In this document: piece after piece, positions 10,276 to 35,130 of the stretch
How positions within the stretch are numbered: the stretch's first letter is position 1
How the letters are laid out: each line of letters starts with the position of its first letter
Virus record (IMG/VR): IMGVR_UViG_3300043446_003702
Coordinates: 32,001 to 96,000 of that record
Origin: a virus
Length of the DNA: 64,000 nt
Direction: 5' to 3' (one strand)
Notes under the pieces: model-generated
Databases searched by the model: none
What the model saw: the letters and a program-made list of their open reading frames with translations, nothing else
Told to the model about the DNA's origin: nothing
Program-made: the position numbers and the translations under genes

Positions 10276-11781
10276 ATGTTTAATCAAAAAATCTTGTGCA
10301 TAGGCAACGAGACTGAAGATACTGACCATCAGGTTTCTCGGTTGTCAGAAGATCAACAAACTATAAATCATGGACTCATATGTAACAAATCGTTTGTTCC
10401 TGTTGAGTCTGGATACTATCATGTCAGCGTAGCAGACATGCCACCCGGTGCAATTGCACACATGGCCTTGAATTTTGATCAAATAATTATGTTAGATCAA
10501 CCCAAAGAATCTTATCCACATTGGAAGTCATTTGTTGGAACATTTAGACTAATGTATGATCTAGAACAAACTGGGCACAATGTGGTTTATCGTAACAACA
10601 AGTGCAACAAGGACATTGGTTTTTGGCACACTCTGTTAAGAGAAAACAAAAGTGTTTGCTTCTATCCATTTTTAGGATTAATAGACAATCTTGGAAGCAC
10701 AGGGATCTGTCCCAAAAATTTTGACGGATTTACTCATATAAACAATATTGAAGATTGGCGCAGTAGCCACAAATATAATATGATGCGTGAAAAAATGCTG
10801 CGCGGAGAATTGGTGACAGAATGGTGTCAAGATTGCTATCAACAAGAATCACTTGGGCAAGAAAGCACGAGACAATTTGAAACTCTTGAATGGATGACAA
10901 GATTAAATTTTACTTCTATTGATGACTTAAGAAAAATTAATGCTCCAGCATACTATGAGATTCGTCCCAGCAATAAATGCAACATCATGTGCCGTACTTG
11001 TGACAATGGTCGTAGTCATTTGATTGAAAAAGAATGGAAAACCATCAACATTCCATTATGGCATTGGCAACCCGCTAACATTACTTTTGAACATGTTGAT
11101 TTTGACACTGTAAAAAGAATATATGTTGGAGGTGGTGAACCAACTGTGATGGCAGAGTTTTATGATTTTTTAAACAAGTGTATTGCCAATGGTCACACTG
11201 ATTTTGAATTGGTTATCGGAACCAATGGTGTGAAATTCAGTGACAAGATCATGCGTTTGTTCAGTCACTTCAGCGACGTTTGTTTTTCAGTCAGTTTTGA
11301 TGGATACAAACAAGTAGGAGACTACATTCGTTGGGGCAGCAACTTTGACACTGTGGTTGCAAACACTCACATGCTGCTGAATCATGGACACAAAGTAGGT
11401 TTACAAACTGTTTTTTCTGTTTACAATGCTACACGAATGCATGAAATTTTTGAATTTTATGATCAAGAATTTCCTACCTCAGGCCTGCTGGTGCAAACTG
11501 CAGGATTTCGTGATGACATAATGGATTGCTACAATAATCCCTGTCCTGAGCTGGTGATAGACTCCATGAAAAGATGTACACAAACAAAGATTTACTATTC
11601 AAACGGAAGATCTTGCAAAACGCAAGTGGATGCAATGTTAAATTGGTATTCAAATCAATATCAACTCGACACAAAAAAATTAAACAAGTTTTATGAACTC
11701 AATGATAAATTGGATAAGGCACGTGGCAGCCGTCTGATTGATTACATTCCAGAACTGGCGCAAGCAAGGAGCATGTCATGA
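10276..11781 (+). CDS. Radical SAM protein with N-terminal extension and SPASM/twitch-like Cys domain
   Basis: CNIMCRTC, GGEP and TNG motifs; upstream CFYPF...C...CQDC. Confidence 0.85.
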   Translation: MFNQKILCIGNETEDTDHQVSRLSEDQQTINHGLICNKSFVPVESGYYHVSVADMPPGAIAHMALNFDQIIMLDQPKESYPHWKSFVGTFRLMYDLEQTGHNVVYRNNKCNKDIGFWHTLLRENKSVCFYPFLGLIDNLGSTGICPKNFDGFTHINNIEDWRSSHKYNMMREKMLRGELVTEWCQDCYQQESLGQESTRQFETLEWMTRLNFTSIDDLRKINAPAYYEIRPSNKCNIMCRTCDNGRSHLIEKEWKTINIPLWHWQPANITFEHVDFDTVKRIYVGGGEPTVMAEFYDFLNKCIANGHTDFELVIGTNGVKFSDKIMRLFSHFSDVCFSVSFDGYKQVGDYIRWGSNFDTVVANTHMLLNHGHKVGLQTVFSVYNATRMHEIFEFYDQEFPTSGLLVQTAGFRDDIMDCYNNPCPELVIDSMKRCTQTKIYYSNGRSCKTQVDAMLNWYSNQYQLDTKKLNKFYELNDKLDKARGSRLIDYIPELAQARSMS

Positions 11782-12749
11782 CATTTTTAGTAACCGGCGG
11801 TCTAGGTCTTATTGGGCACAACGTTGTGGCACGGCTACAAGCACGTGAAGAAAAAGTTGTGGTTGTAGACACCAAGACCACGTATGGTATCATCCCGCAA
11901 GCAGAGATTGACTACTTGATGGAGGAACGGCAGAAAAAGATTGCTCCAGACACACCCATCTACCCTTACGATATCACAGATGAGTCGGATATGGATTTTG
12001 TAATAGGTGAGCACCGACCCCGGGTGATCATTCACTGTGCCAGTTTTCCCCGGCAGAAAGTTGTCAATGCCAACCCTGCTCACGGCGCAGACGTCATGAT
12101 GCGGGGTTTGATCAACCTGCTTGAGAGTGCCAAAAAACATGGCATTGAAAGGTTTGTGTACATCAGTTCAAGCATGGTGTACGGAGACTTTGAAGATGAT
12201 GTGCTGGAAGATGATGAGTGTAATCCGCAAGGACAGTATGGCATTATGAAACTGGCCGGAGAGTGGCTGGTCAAGGACTATACACGTCGTTGTGGGTTTG
12301 AGTATGTGATCATTCGCCCATCAGCAGTGTACGGACCACTGGATGTGGAAGATCGTGTGGTGGCCAAATTCATGCTCACAGCCCGGCGTGGTGGTGTGCT
12401 CAAGGTAAATGGTGCTAGTGAAACCTTGGACTTTACCTATGTGGATGATGCTGCCGACGGCATTGTGGCAGCAGCCACACGCATCATGTGCCGCAATATG
12501 ACATTCAACATCACCAAGTCACATAGTGTAAGCCTGCTGGAAGCCGCTGAAATGATTGTGAAGATTGTGGGTCAGGGCACAATTGAAGTACGTGACAAAG
12601 ACGCAGACTTTCCCAGCCGCGGTGCCTTAAATATTGATCGAGCAAGAACAATATTAGGTTACGATCCAAAGGTAGATGTTGAAGAAGGATTTCAAAAGTA
12701 TCATGAGTGGCTTGAAAATTCCATTTACTGGAATCCAAAGGCAGTATAA
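11778..12749 (+). CDS. NAD-dependent nucleotide-sugar epimerase/dehydratase (extended SDR)
   Basis: VTGGLGLIG, SSSMVYG, YGIMK, VYGP and DFTYVDD. Confidence 0.92.
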   Translation: MTFLVTGGLGLIGHNVVARLQAREEKVVVVDTKTTYGIIPQAEIDYLMEERQKKIAPDTPIYPYDITDESDMDFVIGEHRPRVIIHCASFPRQKVVNANPAHGADVMMRGLINLLESAKKHGIERFVYISSSMVYGDFEDDVLEDDECNPQGQYGIMKLAGEWLVKDYTRRCGFEYVIIRPSAVYGPLDVEDRVVAKFMLTARRGGVLKVNGASETLDFTYVDDAADGIVAAATRIMCRNMTFNITKSHSVSLLEAAEMIVKIVGQGTIEVRDKDADFPSRGALNIDRARTILGYDPKVDVEEGFQKYHEWLENSIYWNPKAV

Positions 12750-13794
12750 CAACCTACGCACTGAGATTCTGGATGCAACCGATACTGTGTTGCGTTCAGG
12801 ACGACTCATGGATGGCAATTCGACCTTTGAGTTTGAACGTTGGTTGGCTCGACGCAACAGTGTTGACTATGCCGTGACCTGTCATTCAGGCACACAGGCC
12901 TTGGAAATCATTGCTGCCTATTACTACCTAGAACTTGTCACAGCATGGGGTACTCGTCAACCCGTGGTAGTGGTGCCGGCCATGACTTATCCCGCAACAC
13001 TGAATGCATTTGCCAGAGCCGGCTGGCAGTTGATCATTGCTGACACAGACAGATATGGACAACTAGACATCAATCGCATACCAGATGAATCAGTGGACAT
13101 GCTGTGTGCTGTTGGACTGTATGGACAAAGCATCACCAACATGCTTCGTAATGCCAACAAACCCATTGCCAGAGTTGTAGAAGATGCTGCACAACATTGG
13201 CTGGCAGATCATTGCATACGCACCGGAGACACTGCCATCAGTTTTGATCCCACAAAAAACTTAGCCAACTACGGCAATGGTGGCGCTGTGATCACCGGTT
13301 CAAGACGTCTGATGGAGTTTGCTAGAAACTGGATCAGCAATGGCAAGCGAACCAATCACGGTGAATTGGGCACCAACAGTCGCATGAGCGAAACTGACTG
13401 TGCGCAGATGTTGGTAAAAACGCGGCACATTGATGCTTGGCAAGCACGACGTAGAAAGATTGCTGAACACTGGTGCCAAGGTCTGCGTGACCGGGAAGGC
13501 ATTGTGTGCTTGATAGATGACTCAAACATGCGTGATCATTGTTTTCACAAGTTTGTGATCACAGTGGACAATCGTGATGCTGTGGTGAAAAATTTAGCCC
13601 TGCGTGGGGTGGAAACACGAGTACACTATGCCACACCCATGCATGAATTGCCAGCGTATCAACACTATGTAGGTCCAGACTTGTTGAGTGCGGCGTCTAG
13701 TTTGGCACGTAGATGTCTAAGCCTACCTATGTATCCTGAACTCACAGATTCAGAAGTAGAGTATGTTATTGATGCGGTGTTAGATTCCGTTTGA
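12703..13794 (+). CDS. DegT/DnrJ/EryC1/StrS-family sugar aminotransferase
   Basis: SGTQAL, EDAAQ, SFDPTKNL (PLP lysine), GTNSRM and LSLPMYP. Confidence 0.92.
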   Translation: MSGLKIPFTGIQRQYNNLRTEILDATDTVLRSGRLMDGNSTFEFERWLARRNSVDYAVTCHSGTQALEIIAAYYYLELVTAWGTRQPVVVVPAMTYPATLNAFARAGWQLIIADTDRYGQLDINRIPDESVDMLCAVGLYGQSITNMLRNANKPIARVVEDAAQHWLADHCIRTGDTAISFDPTKNLANYGNGGAVITGSRRLMEFARNWISNGKRTNHGELGTNSRMSETDCAQMLVKTRHIDAWQARRRKIAEHWCQGLRDREGIVCLIDDSNMRDHCFHKFVITVDNRDAVVKNLALRGVETRVHYATPMHELPAYQHYVGPDLLSAASSLARRCLSLPMYPELTDSEVEYVIDAVLDSV

Positions 13795-15769
13795 CAAACG
13801 CATAAGTGGCCAACCACTCCCACTCATAACTCTTTTTCAACTCATCGAAGTTGCCTGCCACACTGTCCCAATACTCTATGCCATCTTGGGCACCCTTGAT
13901 GCTCCACTGATCTGCACTGTGGTCCACCGTAAGCCATTTGTCTAGTCTATAAGCACTTTCAACATCAGGCAGGCTGGATTTCAACTTGATCACTTCTCTA
14001 AACGCAGTGCGCCAGGCCATCCAAGGCGTGCGATCATAGAATGCCTGCCCAGAAACAATGGGCACTACTTCGTGTGGCTGGTCCAAGGTAAAGTCTAATC
14101 CTGGTCCTGTGTTAGCCAGCACCAATCGTTTGTTGTAGGCAATCATGGCCTGATGTCCATACACCAAGCCATTGACTGGATTGTGTGCATGAAATATGTA
14201 GTGCTTGGGTTGTTGCATGCGATCTGGCTGCCATGACCAATCAAAACGATCACTGACTTCCAGTTTGGCAAACACAGCAAAGAACCATGGGGTAGTGCTG
14301 GCTCTGGCAGCAGCATGATAAGCAGCCACTCGGCCTTGTACATTTTTTATGTGATGAATTTTATTGGCACCATTGTGTTTGCGTACTGTACAGGCTAGAT
14401 GATTTAGATTGTAGTCAGCCATGCGTTCACCATTTTCAATGAACACAATGTCCAAGGGTGGGTCTTGTAAGATTCTCTGTGTTCGGTCTATGTAGGCATA
14501 GTCATACAACTGTGTTTTTATATGCGGTACAGCAGTGCGTGGCACTATCACTGTGCCAGCACCTGAACTCACAGGCACAATGGCTTTGGTTTGTTCGCGC
14601 CACAGTGGCACAGTGATCATGTTACCGGGCACATAGTCCAAGTTAGTGAATGTGGCCAAGGGCCCAGCCCAGGCAGTGTTTTTTACTGCATCTACTTGGC
14701 TGTCGTTGTCATGCAAGATCACAGGCATAGCACGTCGTGGCACAGAGGTGCTGATAAAGTTCACCTCGGTCCATTCCAATAGCTCTTTCTTTTCTGCGCG
14801 AGCCGCAAATGAAGGCACATGCATGAAAAATGTGTCGCCAAACTTTTGATCATTGCTGGCAAACACATGCAACATTGTGGCCTGCCACTGTTCAGGATGC
14901 CACGAAAAGTCAAAATTGCTGTAGTCACAGATGCTGCTACAGATCCACACAAACTCATGTTCAGTGCCTATGCTCCGGGCAATGCGAATCAAGGTGTCTC
15001 TGTAGTTGTCAAAGTAGCGTACAGTGCGTGTGGTGTTGGCGATCTTGCCTGCGTTGCCGCACAAGTGATCTATTTCGTATATGGCAGTGGCCACGCGGTT
15101 GGTTGTAGCACGTATTTGATCCACGTACTTGATGTCTGTGGCACCAGGCACAGTATATCTAGGTCCGCCTGTGCGTTGATGCTGTGTGCCAAACTGATAG
15201 ATGTATGGCGGATCAAAGGGATTTGGGTGCCAAGACTGATCAACTGGCTCTACGCCTGCTGGCACAGTCCACAACTTTTTGGTAGGCCGTGCTACAGCAT
15301 ATTGCGCTGTTTCTAGTTTAATTTTGTCAACATTAGGATTATAAACTGGCCCACCTGCTGGTTGCCATTGTGTGGGAAAATGATGTTGATAGTGATCGCT
15401 GGGCAATGGATGCCATGAAAAGTCAAAACTGTCTGTGTCTATGTTTGGGGGTATACACCAACCATCACGACTGCTCAGTCTCTTAATCACACGGTCGGTA
15501 TGATAATTGGTGGTTTCATAGCCTGCTCGTGGCACGAGATAGGTACCCGAATCTGACTGCCATTGACTGGCCCATGCATGCCGTTGTTTGGACTCCCAGG
15601 GCACCGGCTCCCAAAGAAAATTCCAATCATTGTAATCCGCTAAGTAGTGCACAATCCAAAAAAAACGTGTGCCACTCAACTTTTGTGCATGCTGGAATGA
15701 ATCTACCCGCCGCTCGTGCGGGAACAAATTTGGCTTACCTCCATCACTGAAATAAAATACGTCAAACAT
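13766..15769 (-). CDS. Multi-module glycosyltransferase-like protein (degenerate GT-A repeats)
   Basis: Repeated F(D)xSW(H/Q)P modules. The C-terminal domain is paralogous to 31998-32966 (HAAARAS, NPVNGL.YG, AWR.AFRE..K). Confidence 0.6.
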   Translation of the reverse strand: MFDVFYFSDGGKPNLFPHERRVDSFQHAQKLSGTRFFWIVHYLADYNDWNFLWEPVPWESKQRHAWASQWQSDSGTYLVPRAGYETTNYHTDRVIKRLSSRDGWCIPPNIDTDSFDFSWHPLPSDHYQHHFPTQWQPAGGPVYNPNVDKIKLETAQYAVARPTKKLWTVPAGVEPVDQSWHPNPFDPPYIYQFGTQHQRTGGPRYTVPGATDIKYVDQIRATTNRVATAIYEIDHLCGNAGKIANTTRTVRYFDNYRDTLIRIARSIGTEHEFVWICSSICDYSNFDFSWHPEQWQATMLHVFASNDQKFGDTFFMHVPSFAARAEKKELLEWTEVNFISTSVPRRAMPVILHDNDSQVDAVKNTAWAGPLATFTNLDYVPGNMITVPLWREQTKAIVPVSSGAGTVIVPRTAVPHIKTQLYDYAYIDRTQRILQDPPLDIVFIENGERMADYNLNHLACTVRKHNGANKIHHIKNVQGRVAAYHAAARASTTPWFFAVFAKLEVSDRFDWSWQPDRMQQPKHYIFHAHNPVNGLVYGHQAMIAYNKRLVLANTGPGLDFTLDQPHEVVPIVSGQAFYDRTPWMAWRTAFREVIKLKSSLPDVESAYRLDKWLTVDHSADQWSIKGAQDGIEYWDSVAGNFDELKKSYEWEWLATYAFVKRNLTPHQ

Positions 15770-16955
15770 GATTAGAATAGATGAAATTTATGATAATACA
15801 ATCTGGCCTTGGATAAAACGTCATCATCCTGGTGTAAGGCTTTGGTGGTGCGAACCATTTGGTAGAACAGATCCTGACAGCTTAGTTAATTATGGCAGTG
15901 ACGACTTAATCGAACACAATTATACACTATTATGGGACCAAGAGCCTATTCATTTGAATTTGCATTTGCCCACATTTGAACGAGTTGTTAGCAACAATAA
16001 AAATTTGCATTTAACAGTAAATTACCGTAACCGACTTAATCAATTAGCAATTAACAATGGATATAGCAAACCACTCAATGTCAATTTACAAGTGGGTGCA
16101 ATTATTACCAGCGAACGCGACAGTGACACAGTTGATACAGTGTGCAAACAGTTTGGCTGGCGCAGTTACTATTATTTTTTTCATGGCTGGGCCGCATTGG
16201 ATTGGTATCGTGGATATGACCGAACTTTTTTAATCAAGCCTTGGACTGAAAGAACAATTAATCAAACATTTTTAGCACCAAATCGTATAGTAGCAGGAGA
16301 ACGCAAGCATAGATTGGAAATGCTATATTGGATATTCAAACTTAAAATGAGCAACAATCACGTATCATGTCCTGCTGTGTGCCCTGCCGAAAACATTGCT
16401 ATACTAGATGCTATAAAACCGCTAAAAGCCAAGTATGCAGACATAGAAACAGTTTTTTCCCAACAATCATTGCCCATGAACTTCAAAGACGAAACTGGTC
16501 ACCCCATGCAATCTTGCTGGCTTGATTTGTTTGATCAATCAGCTGAAAGTTTGTTATACTTGGTGACTGAAACCGTGGCCACTGGTCGTAGACATCATTT
16601 GACTGAAAAAACTTTCAAGCCCATTGCCATGGGCATGCCATTTATCATTGTGGGCACACAAGGCAGCTTGCGTTATTTGCGCAGTTACGGTTTCCGGACA
16701 TTTGGTGACCTGTGGGATGAAAGTTATGATGATGAACCTGATGACTCAAAGCGTATAGAAAAAATTGCACGAGTATTGTCGCTGTTGGAGAGCTTGGAAG
16801 AAGATCGTCAGGCCATATTTGAAAGTGCCTGGGATATCATCCAACACAACTGGAATCATTTTTATAACGGTGGCTTTGAAGCAGTACTATGGGAAGAACT
16901 AAAGGACATGTTGAATGAGCTTGAATTTGATAGCAGATCGAGTAATCAAGGGTAG
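15768..16955 (+). CDS. GT-B/GT10-like protein (TET...TEK family), paralog 1
   Basis: LVTET...LTEKTFKPI...PFIIVG...LRSYGFRTF...WDESYD. Confidence 0.55.
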   Translation: MIRIDEIYDNTIWPWIKRHHPGVRLWWCEPFGRTDPDSLVNYGSDDLIEHNYTLLWDQEPIHLNLHLPTFERVVSNNKNLHLTVNYRNRLNQLAINNGYSKPLNVNLQVGAIITSERDSDTVDTVCKQFGWRSYYYFFHGWAALDWYRGYDRTFLIKPWTERTINQTFLAPNRIVAGERKHRLEMLYWIFKLKMSNNHVSCPAVCPAENIAILDAIKPLKAKYADIETVFSQQSLPMNFKDETGHPMQSCWLDLFDQSAESLLYLVTETVATGRRHHLTEKTFKPIAMGMPFIIVGTQGSLRYLRSYGFRTFGDLWDESYDDEPDDSKRIEKIARVLSLLESLEEDRQAIFESAWDIIQHNWNHFYNGGFEAVLWEELKDMLNELEFDSRSSNQG

Positions 16956-18090
16956 AATATATCCTGCCTTGGCTCGTCACGAAGCATATCCCTACACACA
17001 AGGTTGGCGTGAGTTTGGTCAACACTGGCCACACACCACACCATTACGATTGCAAGAATACTGTGACCATCATGGTGTCAAACTCAACATCATTAACATT
17101 GATGCTGAATGGCCCACTGATGCATTTTATCCTGTGGGCTTGGGTTTCTTTGACTTTGGCATTGATTATTTTGAACTAATGCCTGAGCGCATACGTAAAG
17201 GATTGTTCAATAGCAAAGTGCGTGTGTTGTTTTATTATCACGAAGGTGACAATCCTGAACGAATCAAGTCCAGACTAGACCAACTATGCATCAAACACAA
17301 TTTGAGCAACAATTGCTATGTGTTTGTAAGCTCTAATTCGACAGCCAGCAACATTCCAGGATTTGTGGCGTTCCAAGACAGTGAACTTTGGTACTGGCAA
17401 CGCAATCATTATTCTCCGCCATTGGCCATACACAATCAACCAAGAGAACGTGATTTTACAGTGCTCAACAGATTGCACAAATCTTGGCGTGCCATGGCCA
17501 TGGCTGATTTGCACCACAATGGCATATTAGACAACTCTTATTGGAGTTATTGCCAACCAGGCGAGTTTGTGGATGCAGACTGCCCTATTGAAATTGACAG
17601 TATTCCAAAATTGCGGGCAAGAACTGCCAAATTTCTTCAGTCAGCACCTTATGAGAGTGATACGCTTGATAACGATCAGCGAAACAATCATAGCATGTTG
17701 GTATCTAAGTATCATATCAACAGTTATTGTAATATTGTAATGGAAACACATTTTGACATAGGTGGCGGGATACTCTTGAGTGAAAAAACATTCAAACCTA
17801 TTAAACATGGTCAAATGTTTTTTGTAGCAGGTGCTGCGGGAAGTTTACAAGTTCTACGAGATTTGGGATACCGTGTATTTGATGGTATTTTAAACAACAG
17901 ATATGATTTAGAAATTGATGCTACCAAACGATGGATGGCCTTGATTAGATCTATTTTTTTTGCTCGATTGGATTTGCCGCAACTATTTGAATTGTGCCGT
18001 GCCGATATAGAACATAATCAACAGTTATTTCAAACCCGCAAGGCTGAACGTTTAAATAATCTTATCAAGGAAATCAATGAATCTCATTAA
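16915..18090 (+). CDS. GT-B/GT10-like protein, paralog 2
   Basis: LNR, IVMET...LSEKTFKPI...LRDLGYRVF. Confidence 0.55.
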   Translation: MSLNLIADRVIKGRIYPALARHEAYPYTQGWREFGQHWPHTTPLRLQEYCDHHGVKLNIINIDAEWPTDAFYPVGLGFFDFGIDYFELMPERIRKGLFNSKVRVLFYYHEGDNPERIKSRLDQLCIKHNLSNNCYVFVSSNSTASNIPGFVAFQDSELWYWQRNHYSPPLAIHNQPRERDFTVLNRLHKSWRAMAMADLHHNGILDNSYWSYCQPGEFVDADCPIEIDSIPKLRARTAKFLQSAPYESDTLDNDQRNNHSMLVSKYHINSYCNIVMETHFDIGGGILLSEKTFKPIKHGQMFFVAGAAGSLQVLRDLGYRVFDGILNNRYDLEIDATKRWMALIRSIFFARLDLPQLFELCRADIEHNQQLFQTRKAERLNNLIKEINESH

Positions 18091-19117
18091 CTCGTATACC
18101 AGTTGGCAACCACTAGAAGAAGTCATTGTGGGCCGTGCCTACGCACCAGACTATTTTGATTTTATTGAAAATGCGCAAGTGCGTAATCAACTACAACAGA
18201 TTCTTGCGGAAACAGAAGAAGATTTGGCTAACTTGCAAAAAACCATTGAAATGTTTGGGGCTCAAGTTCGTCGACCTAATTTACCCAACAAGCATCGTTT
18301 TCAACAAGAACAGATCAAAGGTCACGGTGCTCCACTGCCACCACTTACCCCAAGAGATTGGCAAATTACCTTGGGAGATCGATTGCTACGTGTTTTAGCA
18401 GTACAAGAACTTGATCAACTGTGTAATGAGTATGAAACTGCACAACCCGGCTCGGTGGTAAACCCACACGGTTCCTCAGGCTGGGACGAAACTTGTATAC
18501 TCAACGGCGCATCTGCCAGTTGTATAGTACGGGTGGGCCGTGATGTGTTTTTTGATAATTCAGATTTTTTAAGACCCGATCAAACACGTTGGATTGTAGA
18601 CAATGTGTTGGGATCAGAATACAGAATTCACGAAGCCATCACTGATGGACATGGCGATGCTGTATTTGCCATACTTAAACCAGGGGTACTGTTGAGTTCA
18701 AAACACGATGTAAATTTGAATCTGTCTGCTGACTTTCCTGGTTGGGACGTTTGTAAAATTTGGGATAGTTCAATATGGGCTGCCATGGAGGTAGGTAAGT
18801 TTAAGTATGAACAAAGCCCCGGTGCTTGGTATGTACAGGGACAAACACCCACACCTGAATTCACAGACTTTGTCAACACTTATCTAACTAAATGGACTGG
18901 CTTTGTTGCTGAAACTGTTTTTGATGTCAACTGCCTTGTACTGGACGAATCACATGTGATATTCAGTGCCTACAACCGAGAAGTATTTGATTATTGTCGC
19001 AAGCATAAAATTGAACCTATTATTAGTGAACTAAGGCACAGTTATTTCTGGGATGGTGGCATCAGTTGCTGCACCCAAGATATTCGCCGTCGTGGTGGAT
19101 TAGAAACTTATCTCTAG
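18077..19117 (+). CDS. Amidinotransferase (AGAT/StrB pentein family)
   Basis: NSYTSWQPLEEVIVG, PRD, RVGRD, GHGD, FDVN and GGISCCTQDIRR. Confidence 0.8.
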   Translation: MNLINSYTSWQPLEEVIVGRAYAPDYFDFIENAQVRNQLQQILAETEEDLANLQKTIEMFGAQVRRPNLPNKHRFQQEQIKGHGAPLPPLTPRDWQITLGDRLLRVLAVQELDQLCNEYETAQPGSVVNPHGSSGWDETCILNGASASCIVRVGRDVFFDNSDFLRPDQTRWIVDNVLGSEYRIHEAITDGHGDAVFAILKPGVLLSSKHDVNLNLSADFPGWDVCKIWDSSIWAAMEVGKFKYEQSPGAWYVQGQTPTPEFTDFVNTYLTKWTGFVAETVFDVNCLVLDESHVIFSAYNREVFDYCRKHKIEPIISELRHSYFWDGGISCCTQDIRRRGGLETYL

Positions 19118-27634: not shown

Positions 27635-28962
27635 AAACTGTTGTACCATTCGCTTAGTGCAGGAAAACACTGCATGAAATTTTTACCACGACGTTGATCA
27701 TATTGTGTGTAAAACTGTCGGAAATCATTCAACAGTTTGGGCCGATCAAAGGCTTCAGAGTGTGGAGTTTTGACCATATCAAGATAGTCTATCAAACGTT
27801 GCAGGTGATTGACTTCGTGCTCGTGCAAACCAGGATTGTGTTGATTGCGGTACAACCATTCTTGTAATTCTACTCTATACCGATTACGCAAACTATCAGG
27901 TAACACCAATGCACTTTGGAAACTAGGGAAGCGTAAGATATTTAATGTAAAACTCAATGCATCTCTACCGTACTCAATTTTCCACTGCAACATACATTCA
28001 AGAAAGTCTACTAGGCTATCCAAACACAGTGCATTTATGGTGCACATAACATGTATGCCACGGAACTGTGCCGAATCCAACAGTCGTTCTACATTGTTGG
28101 CCCAGTCGTCCCACACAAGGCCATCACGTATGTATTCGGCTTGCAGGCCCATGCTTTCGTTGCTGGTGTAAAGATCTATTGCCATGCCACGTGTGCTTGA
28201 CAACAGTTTATCTATGTCAACTGCGCTGCCAAGATTTGAGTTTATGGCCAGTCGTGTGGTTGACTTGCCCCGGTTGTTTTTAAACCAATCTATAAGTTGC
28301 CAGGTGTAACCTGACATCAAGGGTTCACCGCCGGTTATTCGGAGTTCTTGCAGTGTTCTGTGGAGGTCTCGTTCCCACCAGTCGAAGAAGGCCTCCACAT
28401 ACGGATTAGTCTCACCGAATTTATAAAGTTGACTATGATCATGAGTGTGAGTAAAATGGTTCCTACCATCGCTAACCAACCCGACATAGGGTCCATGCTT
28501 GCGTATATCATTGACCCAAGTGGAACTAAAAGCAGGATTGCAGTAAGAACAAGCAAATTGACAAGTACGATCGAAACTAATTTCGAGAGTTCTAAGATTG
28601 ACATCAGTTGTGACAGGAGTTTGTTTTGCTTCATGCAGGGCCTCTATGGGATAAATTTTACTTTTGTACACACGATCAGATATGGCATCACGATCCATGT
28701 CTTCTATCTTCCAGCAGTACTCACAGCCAGCGGGACGCTCACCACGGATCATCTGATCGCGATCTGCTTTTTTCTGATCAGTATTGTGCAACAGCCTAGA
28801 GTTGTTAGAGACTTTATCAATGTCAATCAAATGGGCTGGCGGGTGATGGCAACTTGTGGTCTGCCCACTTCCTAACCAAATGGTAGCGTTATACCATTTC
28901 GCTGCACAAAAACTGGCTGAGAGTTGGTCTAATACAGTGTGTTTAAATTCTAAGTCATTCAT
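27631..28962 (-). CDS. Radical SAM protein (subfamily B)
   Basis: CAAKW...SCHHPP...CEYCW, then CQFACSYC and TGGEP. Confidence 0.88.
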   Translation of the reverse strand: MNDLEFKHTVLDQLSASFCAAKWYNATIWLGSGQTTSCHHPPAHLIDIDKVSNNSRLLHNTDQKKADRDQMIRGERPAGCEYCWKIEDMDRDAISDRVYKSKIYPIEALHEAKQTPVTTDVNLRTLEISFDRTCQFACSYCNPAFSSTWVNDIRKHGPYVGLVSDGRNHFTHTHDHSQLYKFGETNPYVEAFFDWWERDLHRTLQELRITGGEPLMSGYTWQLIDWFKNNRGKSTTRLAINSNLGSAVDIDKLLSSTRGMAIDLYTSNESMGLQAEYIRDGLVWDDWANNVERLLDSAQFRGIHVMCTINALCLDSLVDFLECMLQWKIEYGRDALSFTLNILRFPSFQSALVLPDSLRNRYRVELQEWLYRNQHNPGLHEHEVNHLQRLIDYLDMVKTPHSEAFDRPKLLNDFRQFYTQYDQRRGKNFMQCFPALSEWYNSL

Positions 28963-30055
28963 TTATGTACTGTGCCAATCTTGCAGGCAATTCTGCTCGT
29001 TCCCTGCGATTGTGTTCACGCAGTTGTTGATAGTTGTGTTTGCATACCGATCGTGCAGCCTGTAAAAAATCAGCAGCACCATTGTAACATATATCGTTGA
29101 CTGTGTCAACTATTCTATCTGCACGTGAGGTGGGATCATCTATTTGGTCAAATGATTCGTCTATCAAATGTCCAAATGTTTGAAATCCTGACTCGTGTAA
29201 ATCTCTGTAATATCCGCGATTGGCCGCTGCCACAAATGGGTGTCCCATGATCATGGGCTTCCAAATTTTTTCTGTGCGAAATGTATATGGGTAATCAAAT
29301 ATTGTTTCTGTGACCACTGAAAAATATGTGTCAATATATGGCGCAGGATTGACTTCAGCATCACCCCAGGTGTTGCCAAACAAGTGATGTTTTATAAATC
29401 CTGTGGGCACGTTTTGCATGTTGGGCAGTGCACGATCAATTTCGTATTCTGGGGGCAATAATCTAATGGGTTCTAAATCGCCAGTTTGTAAGCAACTACT
29501 CCAGGCCATTTCCACACGATCATTGAGGTTTGTCCACAGTGCTCGATCCAACAGCCCACGCGATCTAAATGCATCTATCAAGTATTTGCGATGTGGTCGT
29601 AGTCTGCCGTTTAGGAACAAAAAATCATAGGGTTTGTTTTGTTTATGATACACCTGCGGATAAGATTCATGTGCACGTATGTTTTCCAGATACTCTACAA
29701 TGTTGGAGAAGTAACAGTCTGTTTTACAATAGTTCCAACCAGGTTCTAAATCACCTGATGTCAACAATCCAATACGGCCATCACGCACATAGTCAGTGAT
29801 TACCAGTCTGCGCAGTTGTAACAATATTGTTTCACTGCCTTCAGCAGGATTTGAAAAAACAATATGTCCAGGATATTTGGTAGCCCAGTCAGTGATGGCT
29901 ACCCAGTTTTCTTTTAGTACCACTCGGCCTACAATGTAAATTGCTTGAGGGTCTAATTCATTGGGCCATTGCCAAAAACTGCCATCTGCTGAAGACTTGA
30001 GTAGATCCCAAACTTCGGCCCATTCATCCACGATGATTTTACGATTGCCTAGCAT
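28955..30055 (-). CDS. GT-B/GT10-like protein, paralog 4
   Basis: FLFLNGR.R.HR, FSVVTET...RTEKIWKPM..GHPF...GFQTF..LIDESFD. Confidence 0.55.
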   Translation of the reverse strand: MLGNRKIIVDEWAEVWDLLKSSADGSFWQWPNELDPQAIYIVGRVVLKENWVAITDWATKYPGHIVFSNPAEGSETILLQLRRLVITDYVRDGRIGLLTSGDLEPGWNYCKTDCYFSNIVEYLENIRAHESYPQVYHKQNKPYDFLFLNGRLRPHRKYLIDAFRSRGLLDRALWTNLNDRVEMAWSSCLQTGDLEPIRLLPPEYEIDRALPNMQNVPTGFIKHHLFGNTWGDAEVNPAPYIDTYFSVVTETIFDYPYTFRTEKIWKPMIMGHPFVAAANRGYYRDLHESGFQTFGHLIDESFDQIDDPTSRADRIVDTVNDICYNGAADFLQAARSVCKHNYQQLREHNRRERAELPARLAQYINE

Positions 30056-31436
30056 GGTATGCACACTCCTCCCACCAGCTGCGCATTTCTGGAAATGTCT
30101 TTAAAAAATCTGTGCCACGTCTGCTATCATGTTCATAGAAAAAACGATAAAAGTCTGCTTTGGCTGCGGCATGGTCCATATGTTGTTGCGACCTCATCCA
30201 AGCAATGTCACGATCCAGTCTGTGCAGTTCATAGTCTTTGAATCCTTTAAACGGCGCCTCGTCAGTTTCAATTTGTCGTATCATCCATGCCCATAATAGT
30301 TCCAATCGATCAGCATAACTTTCAGGCAAGATTTGTAGACTTTGCCAAGCAGGCTCACGCAACACCGGTGTGTCAAACCACACACGTTGATAGGTGTTGC
30401 TGTAGACTTTTCTCAAACCCAGGATACCTGCAAACAACTGATCTAATGTTGTCACATTGAGATTGTTCATTGTGACAATAAATGTAAGGCTTGAATAATT
30501 AGGAACTTCAGTCAAAAATTGATTTACTCTGTCCCACAGCAAGTTGAAATCCAATCCATGTCTGATGTACTCTGCCTGCGCACCCCATGCATCCAAACTC
30601 ACATACTGCATGAAGTGTTCGATACGTCCGTCACATATTTGTTTGACATACCCCAAATACTTTTGCCATGATTTTTCGTCTACCGAAAAGTTACTGGTCA
30701 CATTCAAATGTAACTTAGGACTGGGATTTTCAATCACGTAATCAAACACACGATAGGTGTTTTTATCCAACAGTGGTTCTCCACCGGTCATGCGAAAATG
30801 TTCTAGGTGAGGGTACAGGTCTGGCCACCATTGCCAGAAGGCCTCAACATAAGGATTTGTTTCTCTTGATGGAATAGTTCTACGACTACCCACAAAGTGC
30901 TCAGGAGCATTGTGTGGCACAGCAGTAGGGTAAGCACCCAGGCGTGATACTTCATCTGCCCACGAACTTGAAAACTGAGGGCTGCAATAACTGCACTGGA
31001 GATTGCAAGCATGATTAAAATTAACTTCAACATAAGTGGGAATGACATTTTCTTCTCCTGTGCTATTTTTAATTGATTCAAAGTCTATGGCTGCCCAAGG
31101 TTCGCCTGATCTGTAGTGCCTATCACTTAGTTTGTTCTGGTCTTCCATGTTCCAGCAATATTGACATTCTGAGGGACGCTCACCTGCCAACATCAATCGA
31201 CGTTGTTGTTTTTTATAATCAGTATTGTGTAGCGCAGAAACATCTATAGCAATTTCCGCAGGATCAATTGGGTGTAGTGGAGGATGATAACATGAATTGT
31301 TCATGCCTGTGGTAAGATGTAGGCTCACCTGCTTCCATTTGGCCAGGCATAGAGCAGGGCCCAATTGAGTTTTCATATGTTCGGCAGAGCTAAGAAATTT
31401 GCTCTTGTTATACACTGACTTATCACCTTTGTTCAT
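30039..31436 (-). CDS. Radical SAM protein (subfamily B)
   Basis: CLAKW...SCYHPP...CQYCW, then CNLQCSYC and TGGEP. Confidence 0.88.
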   Translation of the reverse strand: MNKGDKSVYNKSKFLSSAEHMKTQLGPALCLAKWKQVSLHLTTGMNNSCYHPPLHPIDPAEIAIDVSALHNTDYKKQQRRLMLAGERPSECQYCWNMEDQNKLSDRHYRSGEPWAAIDFESIKNSTGEENVIPTYVEVNFNHACNLQCSYCSPQFSSSWADEVSRLGAYPTAVPHNAPEHFVGSRRTIPSRETNPYVEAFWQWWPDLYPHLEHFRMTGGEPLLDKNTYRVFDYVIENPSPKLHLNVTSNFSVDEKSWQKYLGYVKQICDGRIEHFMQYVSLDAWGAQAEYIRHGLDFNLLWDRVNQFLTEVPNYSSLTFIVTMNNLNVTTLDQLFAGILGLRKVYSNTYQRVWFDTPVLREPAWQSLQILPESYADRLELLWAWMIRQIETDEAPFKGFKDYELHRLDRDIAWMRSQQHMDHAAAKADFYRFFYEHDSRRGTDFLKTFPEMRSWWEECAYHARQS

Positions 31437-31998
31437 ATATCATTTGTTGTATGTTATTAAAAAGATGTTGCATACCATGGCTGTTAAGATGACCGTCAGA
31501 CAATCGCATTCGTGGATGTATTACAGGATAATACATATTGGCATCAACTGCTCTTCTTTCCCAAGAGAAAAACACAGAAATCTTATTGTATTTTTCACAC
31601 ATTGACTTTAAACTAGACACTAAAAAATCACTGTAAAGGCCAGCAAATTTAGTATCATGAATCGCATAAAACAATTTGTGAAAATCAGTGTAAATGTCTG
31701 ACAAAATTTTTGTGTCCTTTTCAAAAGGCAGTTCTGTCACAGTCCTGAAAGGCAACAAATCTATATCATAATTGCCATATTTTAAATAACTTCTAGATGA
31801 GTATGTCCAACCCAATACAATGACGTCACATTCCTGAAAATTCTGGTAGGTGTCAAGTGCAATGGCTAAATTAGATTTGCCCGGACGAGCTTTATTCACT
31901 ACCTCATACTCATTTTGCCATAATGCGGCCAGTGTTTCTGATTGTTGCAATCCTAGACCATAGGTAAAACTACATCCATCAAGATATAATTTCTTCAT
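31423..31998 (-). CDS. SGNH/GDSL-like hydrolase or acyltransferase fold protein
   Basis: Block I-like LDGCSFTYG, block II-like NKARPGKSN and C-terminal DGHLN. Confidence 0.6.
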   Translation of the reverse strand: MKKLYLDGCSFTYGLGLQQSETLAALWQNEYEVVNKARPGKSNLAIALDTYQNFQECDVIVLGWTYSSRSYLKYGNYDIDLLPFRTVTELPFEKDTKILSDIYTDFHKLFYAIHDTKFAGLYSDFLVSSLKSMCEKYNKISVFFSWERRAVDANMYYPVIHPRMRLSDGHLNSHGMQHLFNNIQQMIYEQR

Positions 31999-32966
31999 TA
32001 CCAGCCTTCTTGCTCACGAATAACATCTATCTCTCTAGTCATTACACCACGATTTTGCCAGTTACTGAGATAATGTTGTTTGAAAAAACGGCTTTGTTCA
32101 CCTTCATAAATCATCATTGGTAAGTCTAATTGATGATATAATTCATCTGCCACACGTCCTGCCAGCAACCTTGGATCACTATCCTCTACAGTTTTCCAAA
32201 TTTCTGCCAAAGCGTCAAAGTCTTGTACTTCACGATGGTCCCAGTTGGTAAGCATGGTCATGTATGTGCCCTGTCTAGCACCGGCCATGGCCCACTGTCC
32301 GTTGTTGACGTCAGCACCGATGTTGTGCCATATGGTAAGGTTGTCCAGATTACGTTGATGCACACGATCTTGAAACTCAGACACTGTGGGTCGAGCGCCT
32401 TTGTTGAGACACATTTTTACCCCTTCGCGGAATCCTGCACGCCAGGCTTGAAAAGGTGAACCATTGGGATATGTGGTTGAGTAGCAATCATGCATGGCCC
32501 AGTACAATGGATCAAAACAAAACTCAACTTCTGTTTCAGTTCTGCCATCTGTGGCTTCGTGTGTGCGCATGTTCTTTACAAATTCTCGTGTCCATGAACT
32601 TAGGCCACCATTGCCATACCTAAGTCCATTGATGTGATTGCGGGCACGCCAACGGTACACGGCTTGCTCCCACTCTGGAGTCTCAAATGTCAATGTTTGA
32701 TTGAAAAACTCAGCAGTGGGCAAATTGTCACCATCAATCAAGATAAATCGTTCAGTGGCACTGGCAGCGGCAGCGGCTTTGTGTGCTGCATCTGATCCTT
32801 TGACACCATCTACTCTGGTGGCCCAGGGCACCATGTTCTTGATCAATAACCAATTTTCTTCTCGATCAGGCTCATCATAAGTTAGATAAATGCAGTCTAA
32901 ATCTGCAACGTCAATTTGATTCATAAGTTCTTTTGCTCCAGCGAGTATGAGGTTGGTCCTCGGCAA
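31998..32966 (-). CDS. GT-A fold glycosyltransferase-like protein
   Basis: CIYLTYDE, AHKAAA and FILIDGD (DxD). Confidence 0.65.
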   Translation of the reverse strand: MPRTNLILAGAKELMNQIDVADLDCIYLTYDEPDREENWLLIKNMVPWATRVDGVKGSDAAHKAAAAASATERFILIDGDNLPTAEFFNQTLTFETPEWEQAVYRWRARNHINGLRYGNGGLSSWTREFVKNMRTHEATDGRTETEVEFCFDPLYWAMHDCYSTTYPNGSPFQAWRAGFREGVKMCLNKGARPTVSEFQDRVHQRNLDNLTIWHNIGADVNNGQWAMAGARQGTYMTMLTNWDHREVQDFDALAEIWKTVEDSDPRLLAGRVADELYHQLDLPMMIYEGEQSRFFKQHYLSNWQNRGVMTREIDVIREQEGW

Positions 32967-33246
32967 CGATTACAGCGACATTGTCAGGATGACAAGGGGT
33001 GCCACTGTTGCCGGGGACCAATTTTGCAGTGGTTGCCCATGTTACTTCAATTATCTTTCCATCACGTACACGCACATTGGAATTGCGGCGACGATATTCT
33101 TCTGGTGTTACCTCAATATATGTACCGGGCTCATCAGCCATGCTGTAGAATAGTGGAACACCATTGTCATTGTAGTATAATCTATAAAATGGTTGTTGTG
33201 GTTCAGGCACGGCTTGAAACAGTGCAATTAATTCTTCAGAAGTCAT
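32911..33246 (-). CDS. Hypothetical protein
   Basis: ATGA-coupled start at 33246 (MTSEELIALF...YRLYYN..G). Confidence 0.65.
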   Translation of the reverse strand: MTSEELIALFQAVPEPQQPFYRLYYNDNGVPLFYSMADEPGTYIEVTPEEYRRRNSNVRVRDGKIIEVTWATTAKLVPGNSGTPCHPDNVAVIVAEDQPHTRWSKRTYESN

Positions 33247-34010
33247 GCTTGCCACTCTTTGACATGGTAATGAAACGCACCTGTTTGCGGCACAGTTTGT
33301 ATACGTAGTCTCCAGTCCTGGTATTCCCAAACAAGTTCATTGAGCCAGGCTTCGGTGTTGGTACCTGCTATGTGTCTTTTCATGTGTGCAATTTTTGGGT
33401 ATGTGCTAAATGGCATTGTAACTCGTTCTGGTCCCATGATTTGGGCAACCATGGCATATACCAAATCAGTAGATGGCACTTCATCGGCAAACTTTAGCAG
33501 TTTCTTGAACTCTGGCCAATTGGCAAATATTTGTTTCACCCAACCAAAAAATTCATGAGCAGTTTCACTGCGTCGCCAGTATGTAATGGCATTGTACACA
33601 TCAGGCAAATTGTTGATATCAAACACACGTCGATAGTGTCGTGCTGTGCTGACGTTGTCTTTCCAATCTCTACAGCCTGTGGATATCACGACATCACGAT
33701 GTCTAAATTGTGTCCACCAGTGGTCAATGGGACTCACTATCAGCATGTCTGCTTCTAGTTTGATGGTTTCGCGAAATGGTGTGAGAGCAAACAGTTGTGC
33801 ATCATTGGCATAGGGATTGGCCATGGGTATAATCTGTCTGTGATGATCAAACAAGGAATCAATGTCGGGACTGTCTGTGATTAGACAAATCCTCGCATTT
33901 TTATCCCAGTAGCGTATGGTCTTGGCCAAGGTGCGGGCACAGTCAATATAGTTCACTGTGTCGCTGTTGACTGCTACAATCACATAACCTTGTTCATCCA
34001 GTGGCTGCAA
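33243..34010 (-). CDS. GT-A (GT8-like) glycosyltransferase
   Basis: QGYVIVA...Y...A..LA..I, TPFRETIKLEADML and STD. Confidence 0.65.
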   Translation of the reverse strand: MQPLDEQGYVIVAVNSDTVNYIDCARTLAKTIRYWDKNARICLITDSPDIDSLFDHHRQIIPMANPYANDAQLFALTPFRETIKLEADMLIVSPIDHWWTQFRHRDVVISTGCRDWKDNVSTARHYRRVFDINNLPDVYNAITYWRRSETAHEFFGWVKQIFANWPEFKKLLKFADEVPSTDLVYAMVAQIMGPERVTMPFSTYPKIAHMKRHIAGTNTEAWLNELVWEYQDWRLRIQTVPQTGAFHYHVKEWQA

Positions 34011-34815
34011 CTATGGCCTCCAGGTGCTTTTTACACATAGCATGAAAGTCTATGCCTGCCCAACTCATGGTTTTGAGTCGGCCTTCTGTGTTGGTGTACG
34101 TAACTTCATAATGATCCTGTTCAACACAGGTCAACCCGTGTTCTGGCATGACGTTCATCATGGGCATGAATATCTCATGCACTGATTGGTCGGCACCTGC
34201 TACCAGCCCAAGAGCAATGCTCAATGCATAGTCATTACGATAGTTGGTTTCATGAATACCATATAAGTCTCGGTAGTGCTGCCAGTTGTTTCGTATCATT
34301 TGCATTGAATCAAATATGTATTGGCTAATATTGCCACGACGAAACATCATCACAGTTGCCCACCACATGGGCATGTTGTGTGCGCCAAATGTGGCAAGAT
34401 TCATCATGCTGGCAGGATCAAATGATTCCCGGAAGGCTGCAAATTGTTGCGGTAGTGCCAACAAGTCCAATAACTTATTGCTGGCCACAACATAGTCAGC
34501 ATCCAGTACTATGGTTTGATCAAACGGAGATAACTCATAGGCATTGATTCGTCCAGCATTGTGCCAGGTCACCGTGGTGCCGTAGTCTGCAAAATGTCTT
34601 GTACCGCCGGTGTCTGCCACAGTTGCAATGATATGTTCAAATTCATATTGTGCAGCCGCTCCGGGAGCATCTGTGATCACTGCCACAGGCAAGTGTAAAT
34701 GGCGACGAACGTTCTTTGCACTCCATGCTGCCATGGCAATGTAGTCTGTGGCTTCATTGTTGAATGCAAAGATTACAACACCTTGACTCAGCGTTTTTTG
34801 TTTAGTTCGTCCCAT
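33994..34815 (-). CDS. GT-A (GT8-like) glycosyltransferase; start uncertain (34848, 34815 or CTG 34791)
   Basis: QGVVIFA...Y..MA..SA, SPFDQTIVLDADY, WATVMMF, RND and H.M.K. Confidence 0.7.
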   Translation of the reverse strand: MGRTKQKTLSQGVVIFAFNNEATDYIAMAAWSAKNVRRHLHLPVAVITDAPGAAAQYEFEHIIATVADTGGTRHFADYGTTVTWHNAGRINAYELSPFDQTIVLDADYVVASNKLLDLLALPQQFAAFRESFDPASMMNLATFGAHNMPMWWATVMMFRRGNISQYIFDSMQMIRNNWQHYRDLYGIHETNYRNDYALSIALGLVAGADQSVHEIFMPMMNVMPEHGLTCVEQDHYEVTYTNTEGRLKTMSWAGIDFHAMCKKHLEAIVAATG

Positions 34816-35096
34816 TCCACTTTCCATGCGTTCATTTGTTCTTGCCAACGTTCGTGCGCTAGAGCAAACAAGTCTGTCACTGTGATCCGTACCGGAGTTT
34901 CATACAAGTCCAACAACACAACATCTTTATCTTGTGCGCAGGCCAGCAGTGTGGTCAGCAAGTCGGGACCAGCACGCCACATGCCACCCCCGTGTGCAAA
35001 AACCATTTTTGACTCGTATTTTTCTTTGAGCACCCGTCTTGCGGCTGCATGATCAAATCGTGCTCGTGCGTGAGCTACTAGGGCTTCAGTATCCAT
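34788..35096 (-). CDS. Hypothetical protein, first gene of the modification operon
   Basis: 102 aa; GGMWRA and VLLDLYETPVRI. Confidence 0.7.
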   Translation of the reverse strand: MDTEALVAHARARFDHAAARRVLKEKYESKMVFAHGGGMWRAGPDLLTTLLACAQDKDVVLLDLYETPVRITVTDLFALAHERWQEQMNAWKVEWDELNKKR

Positions 35097-35101
35097 AGTG
35101 T

Positions 35102-35130
35102 ATTATATAGAGAAAGTGGGAAAAAGTAAA
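35102..35130 (-). promoter_or_regulatory. Sigma70-type promoter for the leftward operon
   Basis: On the minus strand, TTTACT-17 nt-TATAAT, 5 nt before the ATG at 35096. Confidence 0.6.

Follow-up and report, generated by a model that had tools for sequence, protein, structure and literature searches.

A conserved jumbo-phage gene cluster of glycosyltransferases and N-terminal-twitch radical SAM enzymes is a probable glycan-building and glycan-tailoring system

Bases 32001–96000 of a single IMG/VR virus record (IMGVR_UViG_3300043446_003702, 148,328 bp in total), a stretch of 64,000 nucleotides called the window here, contain a cluster of about 23 genes, g01–g23 (window 10276–35096), which probably forms a glycan-building and glycan-tailoring system. 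It would combine virus glycan synthesis with radical S-adenosylmethionine (SAM), amidino and carbamoyl chemistry, which virus glycan synthesis is not known to use. The conserved core is composed of an amidinotransferase, a carbamoyltransferase, five radical SAM enzymes (rSAMs) and glycosyltransferases (GTs); the constant chemistry would consist of five radical steps, approximately 6–8 glycosyl transfers and the transfer of amidino and carbamoyl groups. A fuller reading, to which we give even weight, is that of a soluble, virus-encoded glycan assembly-and-editing system of a widespread jumbo myovirus clade, with a virion protein as its likeliest acceptor; the virion as acceptor, graded by itself, falls slightly short of an even chance.

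The cluster is flanked by myovirus baseplate and fibre genes, and the wedge protein, which is gp6-like, shares about 33% identity with its counterparts in Rak2-like, Atu_ph07 and Phosso jumbo phages. The record has a CheckV completeness of 43%, and relatives with the same cluster reach 320–364 kb, one of them carrying terminal repeats and rated 100% complete. Because of the baseplate similarity and the size of these relatives, we place the window in a jumbo phage of roughly 350 kb, from a clade for which nearly all the evidence is metagenomic; the whole cluster had no megablast match among isolated phages. Our gene calls reproduce the coordinates of the initial annotation, and all cluster proteins were mapped onto 160 fetched loci, the counts being reported over sets of 80 loci and 49 relatives.

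In these relatives the genes are arranged in two convergent arms. The plus-strand arm reads u5 – ThyX – u7 – short-chain dehydrogenase/reductase (SDR) – (DegT) – g04 – GT-B – GT-B – amidinotransferase, and the opposite arm reads (FkbM) – carbamoyltransferase – g10 – rSAM – (GT-B) – rSAM – rSAM – rSAM – GT-B – rSAM – variable slot – g19 – g20 – GT8 – (GT8) – g23 – fibre; g22 is missing from the gene order of many relatives at the level of open reading frames (ORFs). Relatives of g15 occur in 471 viral contigs, with 72–82% identity among the best 80, and the amidinotransferase g07, the most conserved gene of the cluster, is 80–92% identical in 135 viral contigs. Median identities in two locus sets are 84–88% for the amidinotransferase and 65–77% for the five core rSAMs; those of g19, the carbamoyltransferase and the adjacent fibre are 75%, about 67% and only 50%, respectively. 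The cassette is a conserved core at 65–90% identity and not a variable island: in the synteny check, its genes co-occur in hundreds of relatives and their order is kept. Accessory genes are DegT (23/49), FkbM (9/49), g01 (2/49) and g18 (5/80). The initial annotation had proposed an aminated, amidinated, carbamoylated and methylated product; amidino and carbamoyl transfer do belong to the core, whereas amination and methylation become lineage-specific extras, given the limited occurrence of DegT and FkbM. ThyX (PF02511, 2.5e-45; window 9227–9907, plus strand) and two small flanking ORFs are syntenic with the plus-strand arm in 37–43 of the 49 relatives.

On the minus strand, the 16 genes between 35096 and 19114 adjoin or overlap one another, as had been claimed for a single operon, except at one 94-nt gap (21388–21481). 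The operon starts directly after the tail-fibre terminator, also as claimed, with a hairpin at 35147–35128 between the fibre gene and g23. The operon TATAAT ends 5 nt ahead of the g23 ATG (TATAATACACTATG), suggesting that g23, as the first gene, is leaderless or near-leaderless.

All six radical SAM enzymes that had been recognized in the cluster belong to the NF033640 family (N_Twi_rSAM): they score 218–401 bits against its hidden Markov model, with a cut-off of 170, and E values range from 2e-64 to 5e-120 over the full-length model. The SPASM/twitch Pfam match lies N-terminal to the Radical_SAM match. In rSAM alignments, the CxxxCxxC motif (C120, C124, C127) and the GGEP motif that follows it are invariant, and an auxiliary set of cysteines stands ahead of them, with C5, C66 and C69 invariant and C24 near-invariant. 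The further claim that these are twitch enzymes like BtrN does not hold, as their twitch domain stands at the N terminus and, among solved sequences, those closest to the rSAM core are viperin, BlsE, SkfB and MoaA, all remote (E ≥ 7e-6); BtrN is absent among the rSAM PDB matches up to an E value of 0.01. NF033640 is a curated, named family that is uncharacterised, as a literature search on its name found neither a paper nor a characterised member, and larger protein searches returned only unnamed orthologs. The six enzymes of the cluster share with it the N-terminal four-cysteine domain ahead of the CxxxCxxC core, and the family amounts to 5,921 clusters at 50% identity (E ≤ 1e-30). In the present phages the family is expanded, with seven copies in the whole record and 9–17 in each complete relative, and occurs in fixed one-to-one orthologous sets. 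The rSAM complement of the complete relatives may be the largest reported for any virus.

The five relatives G001–G005 (the records behind L027, L076, L114, L161 and L142) have 9, 9, 10, 11 and 17 N_Twi rSAM genes, of which five or more lie within the main cassette and the others are scattered. In the present record, the seventh copy lies outside the cluster (G000:C1:21337-22527, minus strand, L173). A gene for S-adenosylhomocysteine hydrolase (PF05221, 3e-126; G000:C1:28253-29539, plus strand, L173) is present as well and suggests that SAM is turned over heavily. The orthologs of g14 are either about 420 or about 550–565 residues long; the N-terminal 160 residues of g14 (27188–27670, minus strand) match no family, and in g14-type enzymes elsewhere this extension is replaced by Sel1 or TPR repeats at one end. 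In many proteins of 800–1200 residues (P0121–P0133 and others), a single chain holds two or three N_Twi rSAM modules in tandem. No cellular relative turned up when genome contigs were scanned with the g14 core.

Gene fusions tie the rSAMs to glycosyl transfer. P0189, observed on one 2.7-kb contig only, is a fusion of a domain resembling g19 (hhalign 98%, E 2e-13), in which DAD replaces the DGD of g19, and an rSAM of the g17 type (38% identity, 442 residues). In the window, g19 and g17 are near neighbours with only the accessory g18 between them, and by the Rosetta-stone argument the fusion suggests that the two act together. P0248 joins a g15-type rSAM (45% identity) to a GT2 domain (PF00535, 6e-17), and its home, a 28.9-kb contig (L174, JGI 3300048881), has nine rSAM genes alternating with five GT2 genes, all five significant in Pfam; an amine-oxidase-like flavoprotein is encoded there as well, the same rSAM/GT alternation appearing in another implementation. 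The g14-type rSAMs are found fused to TPR (P0208, P0198, P0171) or Sel1 (P0180) repeats, P0180 and P0208 being 40–43% identical to g14. TPR and Sel1 repeats are protein-binding modules, and these fusions suggest a macromolecular acceptor or protein partners. The rSAM-TPR protein P0208 is encoded on a cellular-looking contig (L175), beside an SDR/sugar C-methyltransferase, an RmlD-like reductase and a GT2.

The same fusions can be read in a different way, with the rSAMs acting on residues of virion proteins, by cross-linking or epimerisation as do the maturases of peptides that are made by the ribosome and modified after translation, and the GTs working separately. This we consider distinctly unlikely. 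Most SPASM/twitch rSAMs of known function modify peptides, the weak NCBIfam matches of the rSAMs are to peptide maturases, S8-peptidase-like fusions exist beside those with TPR and Sel1, and the small conserved ORFs g20 and g23 could encode partner proteins. However, the direct fusions to GTs and the strict interleaving with GT genes recur in several unrelated contexts, the cellular context on L175 is a deoxysugar locus, and neither an RRE/PqqD-like domain nor a short precursor gene was detected in the cluster.

Four of the GT-like genes, g05, g06, g12 and g16 (family A), are mutual paralogs by blastp, and their alignment has invariant R, E, K and K residues and a TEKxxKP block. In Foldseek searches, the g16 model matched SenB, PglA, T4 β-glucosyltransferase (BGT), fucosyltransferase (FucT) and WaaG with probabilities of 0.9–1.0, and all the matches up to an E value of about 0.04 were GTs, exclusively GT-B enzymes. 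VIA-align gave Z scores of 11–12.5 over 260–285 residues; the α1,3-FucT of H. pylori (PDB 2nzw) came first, with a Z score of 12.5 and a root-mean-square deviation of 4.0 on 268 residues at 11% identity, but is tied with SenB, T4 BGT and others. The four GT-B-like genes of the initial annotation are thus true paralogs with a modelled GT-B member. The E...TEK..KP block of family A resembles FENS...TEK, which we take to be the GT10 motif and use as a lead only. None of the four paralogs matches a Pfam family at E ≤ 0.01, Glyco_transf_10 included. Membership in CAZy family GT10 was considered and rejected: the likeness consists of the tied top structural match and the TEK-like motif, and it is set against the 11% identity and the lack of a Pfam GT match. 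Two more family-A paralogs (319 and 334 residues) lie outside the window (G000:C1:4093-8215, L172), where they flank an asparagine-synthase-like amidotransferase (PF00733, 9e-16), and look like a second small glycan-related module.

The GT-A side is less uniform. The g21 model matches glycogenin (4e-8), BoGT6a, LgtC and XXYLT1 in Foldseek, indicating a GT-A fold nearest to GT8, although by sequence g21 and its paralog g22 match the PDB weakly (E 0.2–0.6) and Pfam not at all. For g19, 5 of 14 orthologs weakly match Glyco_tranf_2_3 (best E 0.014) and the neighbour in the Atlas is auto-named GT2-like; hhalign against a bona fide GT2 domain gave a local motif only, which is not significant. The true start of g19 is probably at residue 15. 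Domains similar to g19 also occur within marine proteins of 800–1200 residues, some of which have GT1, GT28 or GT2 Pfam domains. Of the three GT-A-like genes claimed, g21 therefore stands by its fold and g22 as its paralog, and g19 by weak profile matches and a motif. The structure-prediction check bears out GT folds for two families, through the g16 and g21 models. The hhalign comparisons revealed no relation among the g19, g10 and g21/g22 families, and g10 had no match in Pfam, NCBIfam, PHROGs, the PDB profile search, the Atlas or member-wise Pfam. The suggestion that g04 is a pseudo-GT fits its C-terminus, which is g19-like and has lost the DxD motif. The protein carries four FDxSWxP...(GGP.Y) copies, the fourth inside this C-terminal domain; the other three look like incomplete duplicates of a single sub-structure in the g19-like domain. 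No match was found for g04 in Pfam, PHROG, NCBIfam or the PDB, or for g19 among PDB sequences.

The tailoring enzymes are better anchored in known families. The SDR g02 (Pfam Epimerase, 5e-45) carries GGLGLIG, a GalE-type SSSMVYG and YGIMK, has no TDE at the catalytic position and scores under the cut-off of the dTDP-glucose dehydratase equivalog. Because of this GalE-type signature without TDE, it is of the epimerase type, as had been annotated, and not a 4,6-dehydratase. The DegT/StrS assignment of g03 is equally sound (PF01041, 191 bits, 6e-56), with the lysine for pyridoxal phosphate in SFDPTKN; its best NCBIfam match is PseC, but PseC, WecE and the other equivalogs all score under their cut-offs. 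No Pfam match was obtained for g07 at E ≤ 0.01, while a ten-ortholog profile matched AGAT (1e-23), HsvA, SxtG and StrB1 (3e-17) in the PDB, in three stretches covering residues 5–347. Cys331 in GGISC aligns with GGFHC of AGAT, His192 in DGHGDA stands opposite H-IDA of AGAT, and Asp156 lies in GRD; all three residues are invariant in the 10 orthologs, so that the amidinotransferase claim is upheld down to the catalytic triad. The carbamoyltransferase g09 has both the Carbam_trans_N (130 bits) and the Carbam_trans_C (161 bits) domains above the gathering score, matches NovN (6e-53) and TobZ (1e-35), in agreement with the CmcH/TobZ class first given to it, and is 45% identical to a homolog in Ralstonia phage RsoM2USA. 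The FkbM methyltransferase is likewise recovered (PF05050, 1e-17). The SGNH-like label of g18 finds support by eye in DGCSFTYG ... DGHLNSHG (GxS-like and DxxH-like) and none in Pfam, NCBIfam, PHROG or the PDB, where g18 has no match. The positions of all features are given in Table 1.

Table 1. Features of the cluster and of its fibre-side flank, with positions in the window
Feature	Position	Strand	Evidence and occurrence
g01, N-terminal-twitch radical SAM, ~120-aa N-terminal extension	10276..11781	+	NF033640 2e-64; accessory, 2/49 relatives
g02, extended SDR, NDP-sugar 4-epimerase type	11778..12749	+	Pfam Epimerase 5e-45; 43/49 relatives
g03, DegT/StrS-type PLP (pyridoxal phosphate) sugar aminotransferase, semi-accessory	12676..13794	+	PF01041 6e-56; 23/49 relatives
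g04, 667 aa, pseudo-GT or scaffold	13766..15769	-	blastp to g19 9e-6; 49/49 relatives
g05, family-A GT-B-like glycosyltransferase, TEK motif	15768..16955	+	paralog of g16, g12, g06; 49/49 relatives
g06, family-A GT-B-like glycosyltransferase	16915..18090	+	paralogy, alignment; 47/49 relatives
g07, amidinotransferase (AGAT/StrB1/HsvA/SxtG family)	18077..19117	+	PDB profile matches 1e-23 to 3e-17
g08, FkbM-type methyltransferase, accessory	19114..19899	-	PF05050 1e-17; 9/49 relatives
g09, NodU/CmcH/TobZ/NovN-type carbamoyltransferase	19900..21387	-	PF02543 and PF16861; 49/49 relatives
g10, conserved, 341 aa, fold unassigned	21482..22507	-	median identity 66%; 49/49 relatives
g11, N-twitch radical SAM, core gene	22500..23777	-	NF033640 1.5e-80
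g12, family-A GT-B-like glycosyltransferase, variable presence	23774..24781	-	19/49 relatives at >60% coverage
g13, N-twitch radical SAM	24774..25988	-	NF033640 5e-100; 79/80 loci
g14, N-twitch radical SAM, ~160-aa N-terminal extension	25985..27670	-	NF033640 5e-120
g15, N-twitch radical SAM, SCHHPP subtype	27631..28962	-	NF033640 5e-86; 471 viral contigs
g16, family-A GT-B glycosyltransferase, modelled member	28955..30064	-	AlphaFold2 (AF2) pLDDT 89.7
g17, N-twitch radical SAM, SCYHPP subtype	30039..31436	-	NF033640 4e-96
g18, possible SGNH-like protein, variable slot, accessory	31423..31998	-	motifs only; 5/80 loci
g19, conserved GT-A-like (GT2-like) protein, DGD motif	31998..32966	-	weak profile matches, motif
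g20, small conserved protein	32911..33330	-	76/80 loci, median identity 49%
g21, GT-A / GT8-like glycosyltransferase, EAD motif	33243..34010	-	AF2 pLDDT 79; phrog_1903
g22, g21 paralog, DAD motif	33994..34848	-	blastp 1e-7 to g21; 74/80 loci (tblastn coverage)
g23, first gene of the operon, 102 aa	34788..35096	-	72/80 loci, 65% identity
Hairpin terminator following the fibre gene; a promoter-like site, TTTACT-N17-TATAAT, overlaps it	35102..35147	-	
g24, Thr-rich fibre-like protein, candidate acceptor	35151..36119	-	22% Thr; adjacent in 68/80 relatives

From the enzyme families, folds, conservation, synteny, fusions and absence of membrane parts, all of which are observed, we infer a scheme for the rSAM chemistry, the order of the steps and the acceptor. 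The GT-Bs with a GT10-like TEK motif (g05, g06, g12 and g16) and the GT-As (g21, g22 and probably g19) would add sugars singly, in the cytoplasm, to a macromolecular acceptor. Each of the five core N-terminal-twitch rSAMs may edit one particular sugar during or after transfer, in tandem with its partner GT and possibly bound to it, hydrogen-atom abstraction leading to epimerisation, oxidation, dehydration or C–C bond formation as candidate reactions. The amidinotransferase and the carbamoyltransferase would add guanidino and carbamoyl groups, respectively, and the SDR epimerase would supply nucleotide sugar, with the sixth rSAM, DegT, FkbM and the SGNH-like protein as lineage-specific extras. 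The likeliest acceptor would be a protein of the virion, for instance the Thr-rich fibres next to the cluster.

The virion is favoured indirectly because membrane or lipid-carrier parts and known DNA "handle" enzymes are lacking, and among possible acceptors a virion protein is the best candidate because of the fixed position beside the fibres, the TPR/Sel1 fusions, the GT8-like enzymes, which in fold come close to solved enzymes that glycosylate proteins, glycogenin among them, and the occurrence of a g07 homolog in a virion proteome. The latter homolog, 28% identical to g07, was detected among the virion proteins of cyanophage S-SCSM2R (PMC12801897). The fibres next to the cluster had been described as rich in Ser/Thr and in NxS/T sites: they are Thr-rich, g24 having 22% Thr, but their NxS/T content is not above that expected from shuffled sequences. 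A 5167-residue ORF (window 38716–54219, minus strand) separates the baseplate wedge gene from the fibre genes and has 17% Ser+Thr and 76 NxS/T sites against 58 expected; it presumably encodes a giant fibre or decoration protein, another candidate acceptor.

None of the 23 cluster proteins and three adjacent fibre-region proteins has a hydrophobic segment resembling a transmembrane one, and none of WbaP (PF02397), WecA (PF00953) and Wzx (PF01943) was found in five relatives 89–100% complete, whereas control genomes were positive for all three. A lipid-carrier route run by the phage is therefore unlikely. These results bear on an alternative to which we assign a low probability, namely that the cassette alters the lipopolysaccharide or capsule of the host during infection, for example to block superinfection. 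Fibre-adjacent regions of pelagimyophages and cyanomyophages, with GT8-type GTs and rSAM cassettes, have been interpreted in this sense (PMC7029224), NodU-like carbamoyltransferases are common in cyanomyophages, and a phage without carriers of its own could still feed those of the host. Such remodelling sits poorly, however, with a cluster that encodes no membrane-spanning protein, in relatives with no initiating phosphoglycosyltransferase or flippase, and with a core conserved at 65–90% identity in place of a hypervariable island; moreover, nothing suggests lysogeny.

The searches for DNA-handle enzymes covered this record and the same five relatives. No ThyA homolog was found, with control genomes positive, and no TET/JBP, in a search made without a positive control. 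The known glycosylated bases are built on 5-hydroxymethylcytosine, 5-hydroxymethyluracil or 5-hydroxycytosine through ThyA homologs or TET-type oxygenases (PMC13326640; bioRxiv 10.1101/2023.12.21.572611). In these searches, neither kind of enzyme turned up to serve DNA hypermodification, in which the GTs would glycosylate the phage DNA and the other enzymes decorate its glycan as a shield from host nucleases. ThyX does lie just upstream in conserved synteny, but its family is one of ordinary dTMP synthases. The enzymes are all soluble, as this alternative would have it, the g16 model aligns with the T4 β- and α-glucosyltransferases at Z 11.7–12.1, tied with its best matches, and oligosaccharide-bearing phage DNA is known (bioRxiv 10.1101/2023.12.21.572611; PMC13326640). 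The cluster lies beside fibre and not replication genes, and the TPR and Sel1 fusions point at protein partners. On balance, we find modification of DNA improbable.

The initial annotation had emphasized enzyme classes of aminoglycoside pathways. The classes are indeed shared with StrB1, StrS/BtrR, TobZ and BtrN/NeoN (g07 to StrB1, 3e-17; g09 to TobZ, 1e-35), but these pathways have fewer GTs than the present cluster, where in addition the twitch domain is N-terminal, and no aminocyclitol-forming enzyme (2-deoxy-scyllo-inosose or inositol-phosphate synthase) appeared in Pfam scans of the 23 cluster proteins. The likeness is thus one of class and not of pathway. A diffusible aminoglycoside- or nucleoside-like glycoside acting on the host or on competitors would account for the antibiotic-pathway classes (DegT, StrB1-type amidinotransferase, TobZ/NovN-type carbamoyltransferase and rSAM), for the 80–92% conservation of g07, which fits a small universal substrate, and for the presence of the nucleoside-sugar enzyme BlsE and of viperin among the nearest solved rSAMs. 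It is nevertheless unlikely in our view, as the 7–9 GT-like genes far exceed the needs of such products, the TPR/Sel1 fusions suggest macromolecular substrates, and the same scans found no aminocyclitol/inosose synthase, exporter or resistance gene.

Several points weigh against a virion glycan built and edited as proposed above. The nearest solved relatives of the rSAMs are too distant for a reaction to be assigned, and in relatives that lack DegT the amidinotransferase has no obvious amine acceptor. In the statistics of the GT-B matches, the T4 DNA glucosyltransferases are level with the others, and the assignment of g19 to GT-A is weak at the sequence level, with no significant match to a canonical GT2 domain. 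The scheme gives no role to g10, g20, g23 or most of g04. As the operon has its own sigma-70-like promoter after a terminator, co-expression with the late structural genes is not implied. Finally, in Vibrio phage K566 and Ralstonia phage RsoM2USA the annotation shows no fibre genes next to the related rSAM clusters, so that the fibre adjacency may be specific to this clade.

Virus-encoded virion glycosylation is exemplified by the fibril glycans of Mimivirus and the capsid glycans of chloroviruses, and to our knowledge the known systems of this kind do not use radical SAM enzymes, amidinotransferases or carbamoyltransferases. The capsids and tail tubes of mycobacteriophages also carry glycans (Freeman et al. 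2023, as cited in PMC12619734). The likeness of the present cluster to such systems lies in soluble virus GTs and SDR/DegT-type enzymes next to structural genes, with no lipid-carrier machinery. If the virion is the acceptor, virion glycosylation would be extended from mycobacteriophages and giant viruses to jumbo myoviruses of Gram-negative type, with radical chemistry in addition; if DNA is, the cluster would represent a new class of DNA hypermodification. A bolder proposal, which we put forward tentatively, is that the N-terminal-twitch rSAMs are a new class of post-transfer glycan editors physically partnered with GTs (g17 with g19, g15 with a GT) and build a virion-fibre "glycocalyx" with no cellular counterpart. 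Its sugars, at 9–17 rSAM copies per genome, would be radically epimerised, oxidised or cross-linked, then amidinated and carbamoylated. The N_Twi rSAM family, with at least 5,900 clusters at 50% identity, is found here in a fixed context with testable substrates (GTs, fusions and fibres). The product would be common among environmental jumbo phages, though so far unseen, since the cassette occurs in hundreds of viral contigs and its proteins make up thousands of clusters at 90%.

Comparable combinations of classes have been reported in other large myoviruses: five rSAMs with a glycine amidinotransferase in Campylobacter phages CP220/CPt10 in 2010 (PMC2853527), fibre-adjacent GT/rSAM cassettes in pelagimyophages (PMC7029224), and DegT with an rSAM and an amidinotransferase in cyanophage S-SCSM2R (PMC12801897). 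These regions are described as interchangeable or hypervariable, whereas the cassette studied here is a conserved core. Homology with the CP220 cluster was considered and rejected, as its rSAMs score at most 31 bits against the cut-off of 170 and g07 has no CP220 homolog. Parts of the cassette also occur in phages that are further removed. RsoM2USA encodes an rSAM 51% identical to g15, two genes away from a carbamoyltransferase resembling g09; of the five N_Twi-like matches in Vibrio phage K566, two exceed the cut-off; and on a contig of a marine single-cell virus an N_Twi rSAM occurs together with an amidinotransferase and a carbamoyltransferase.

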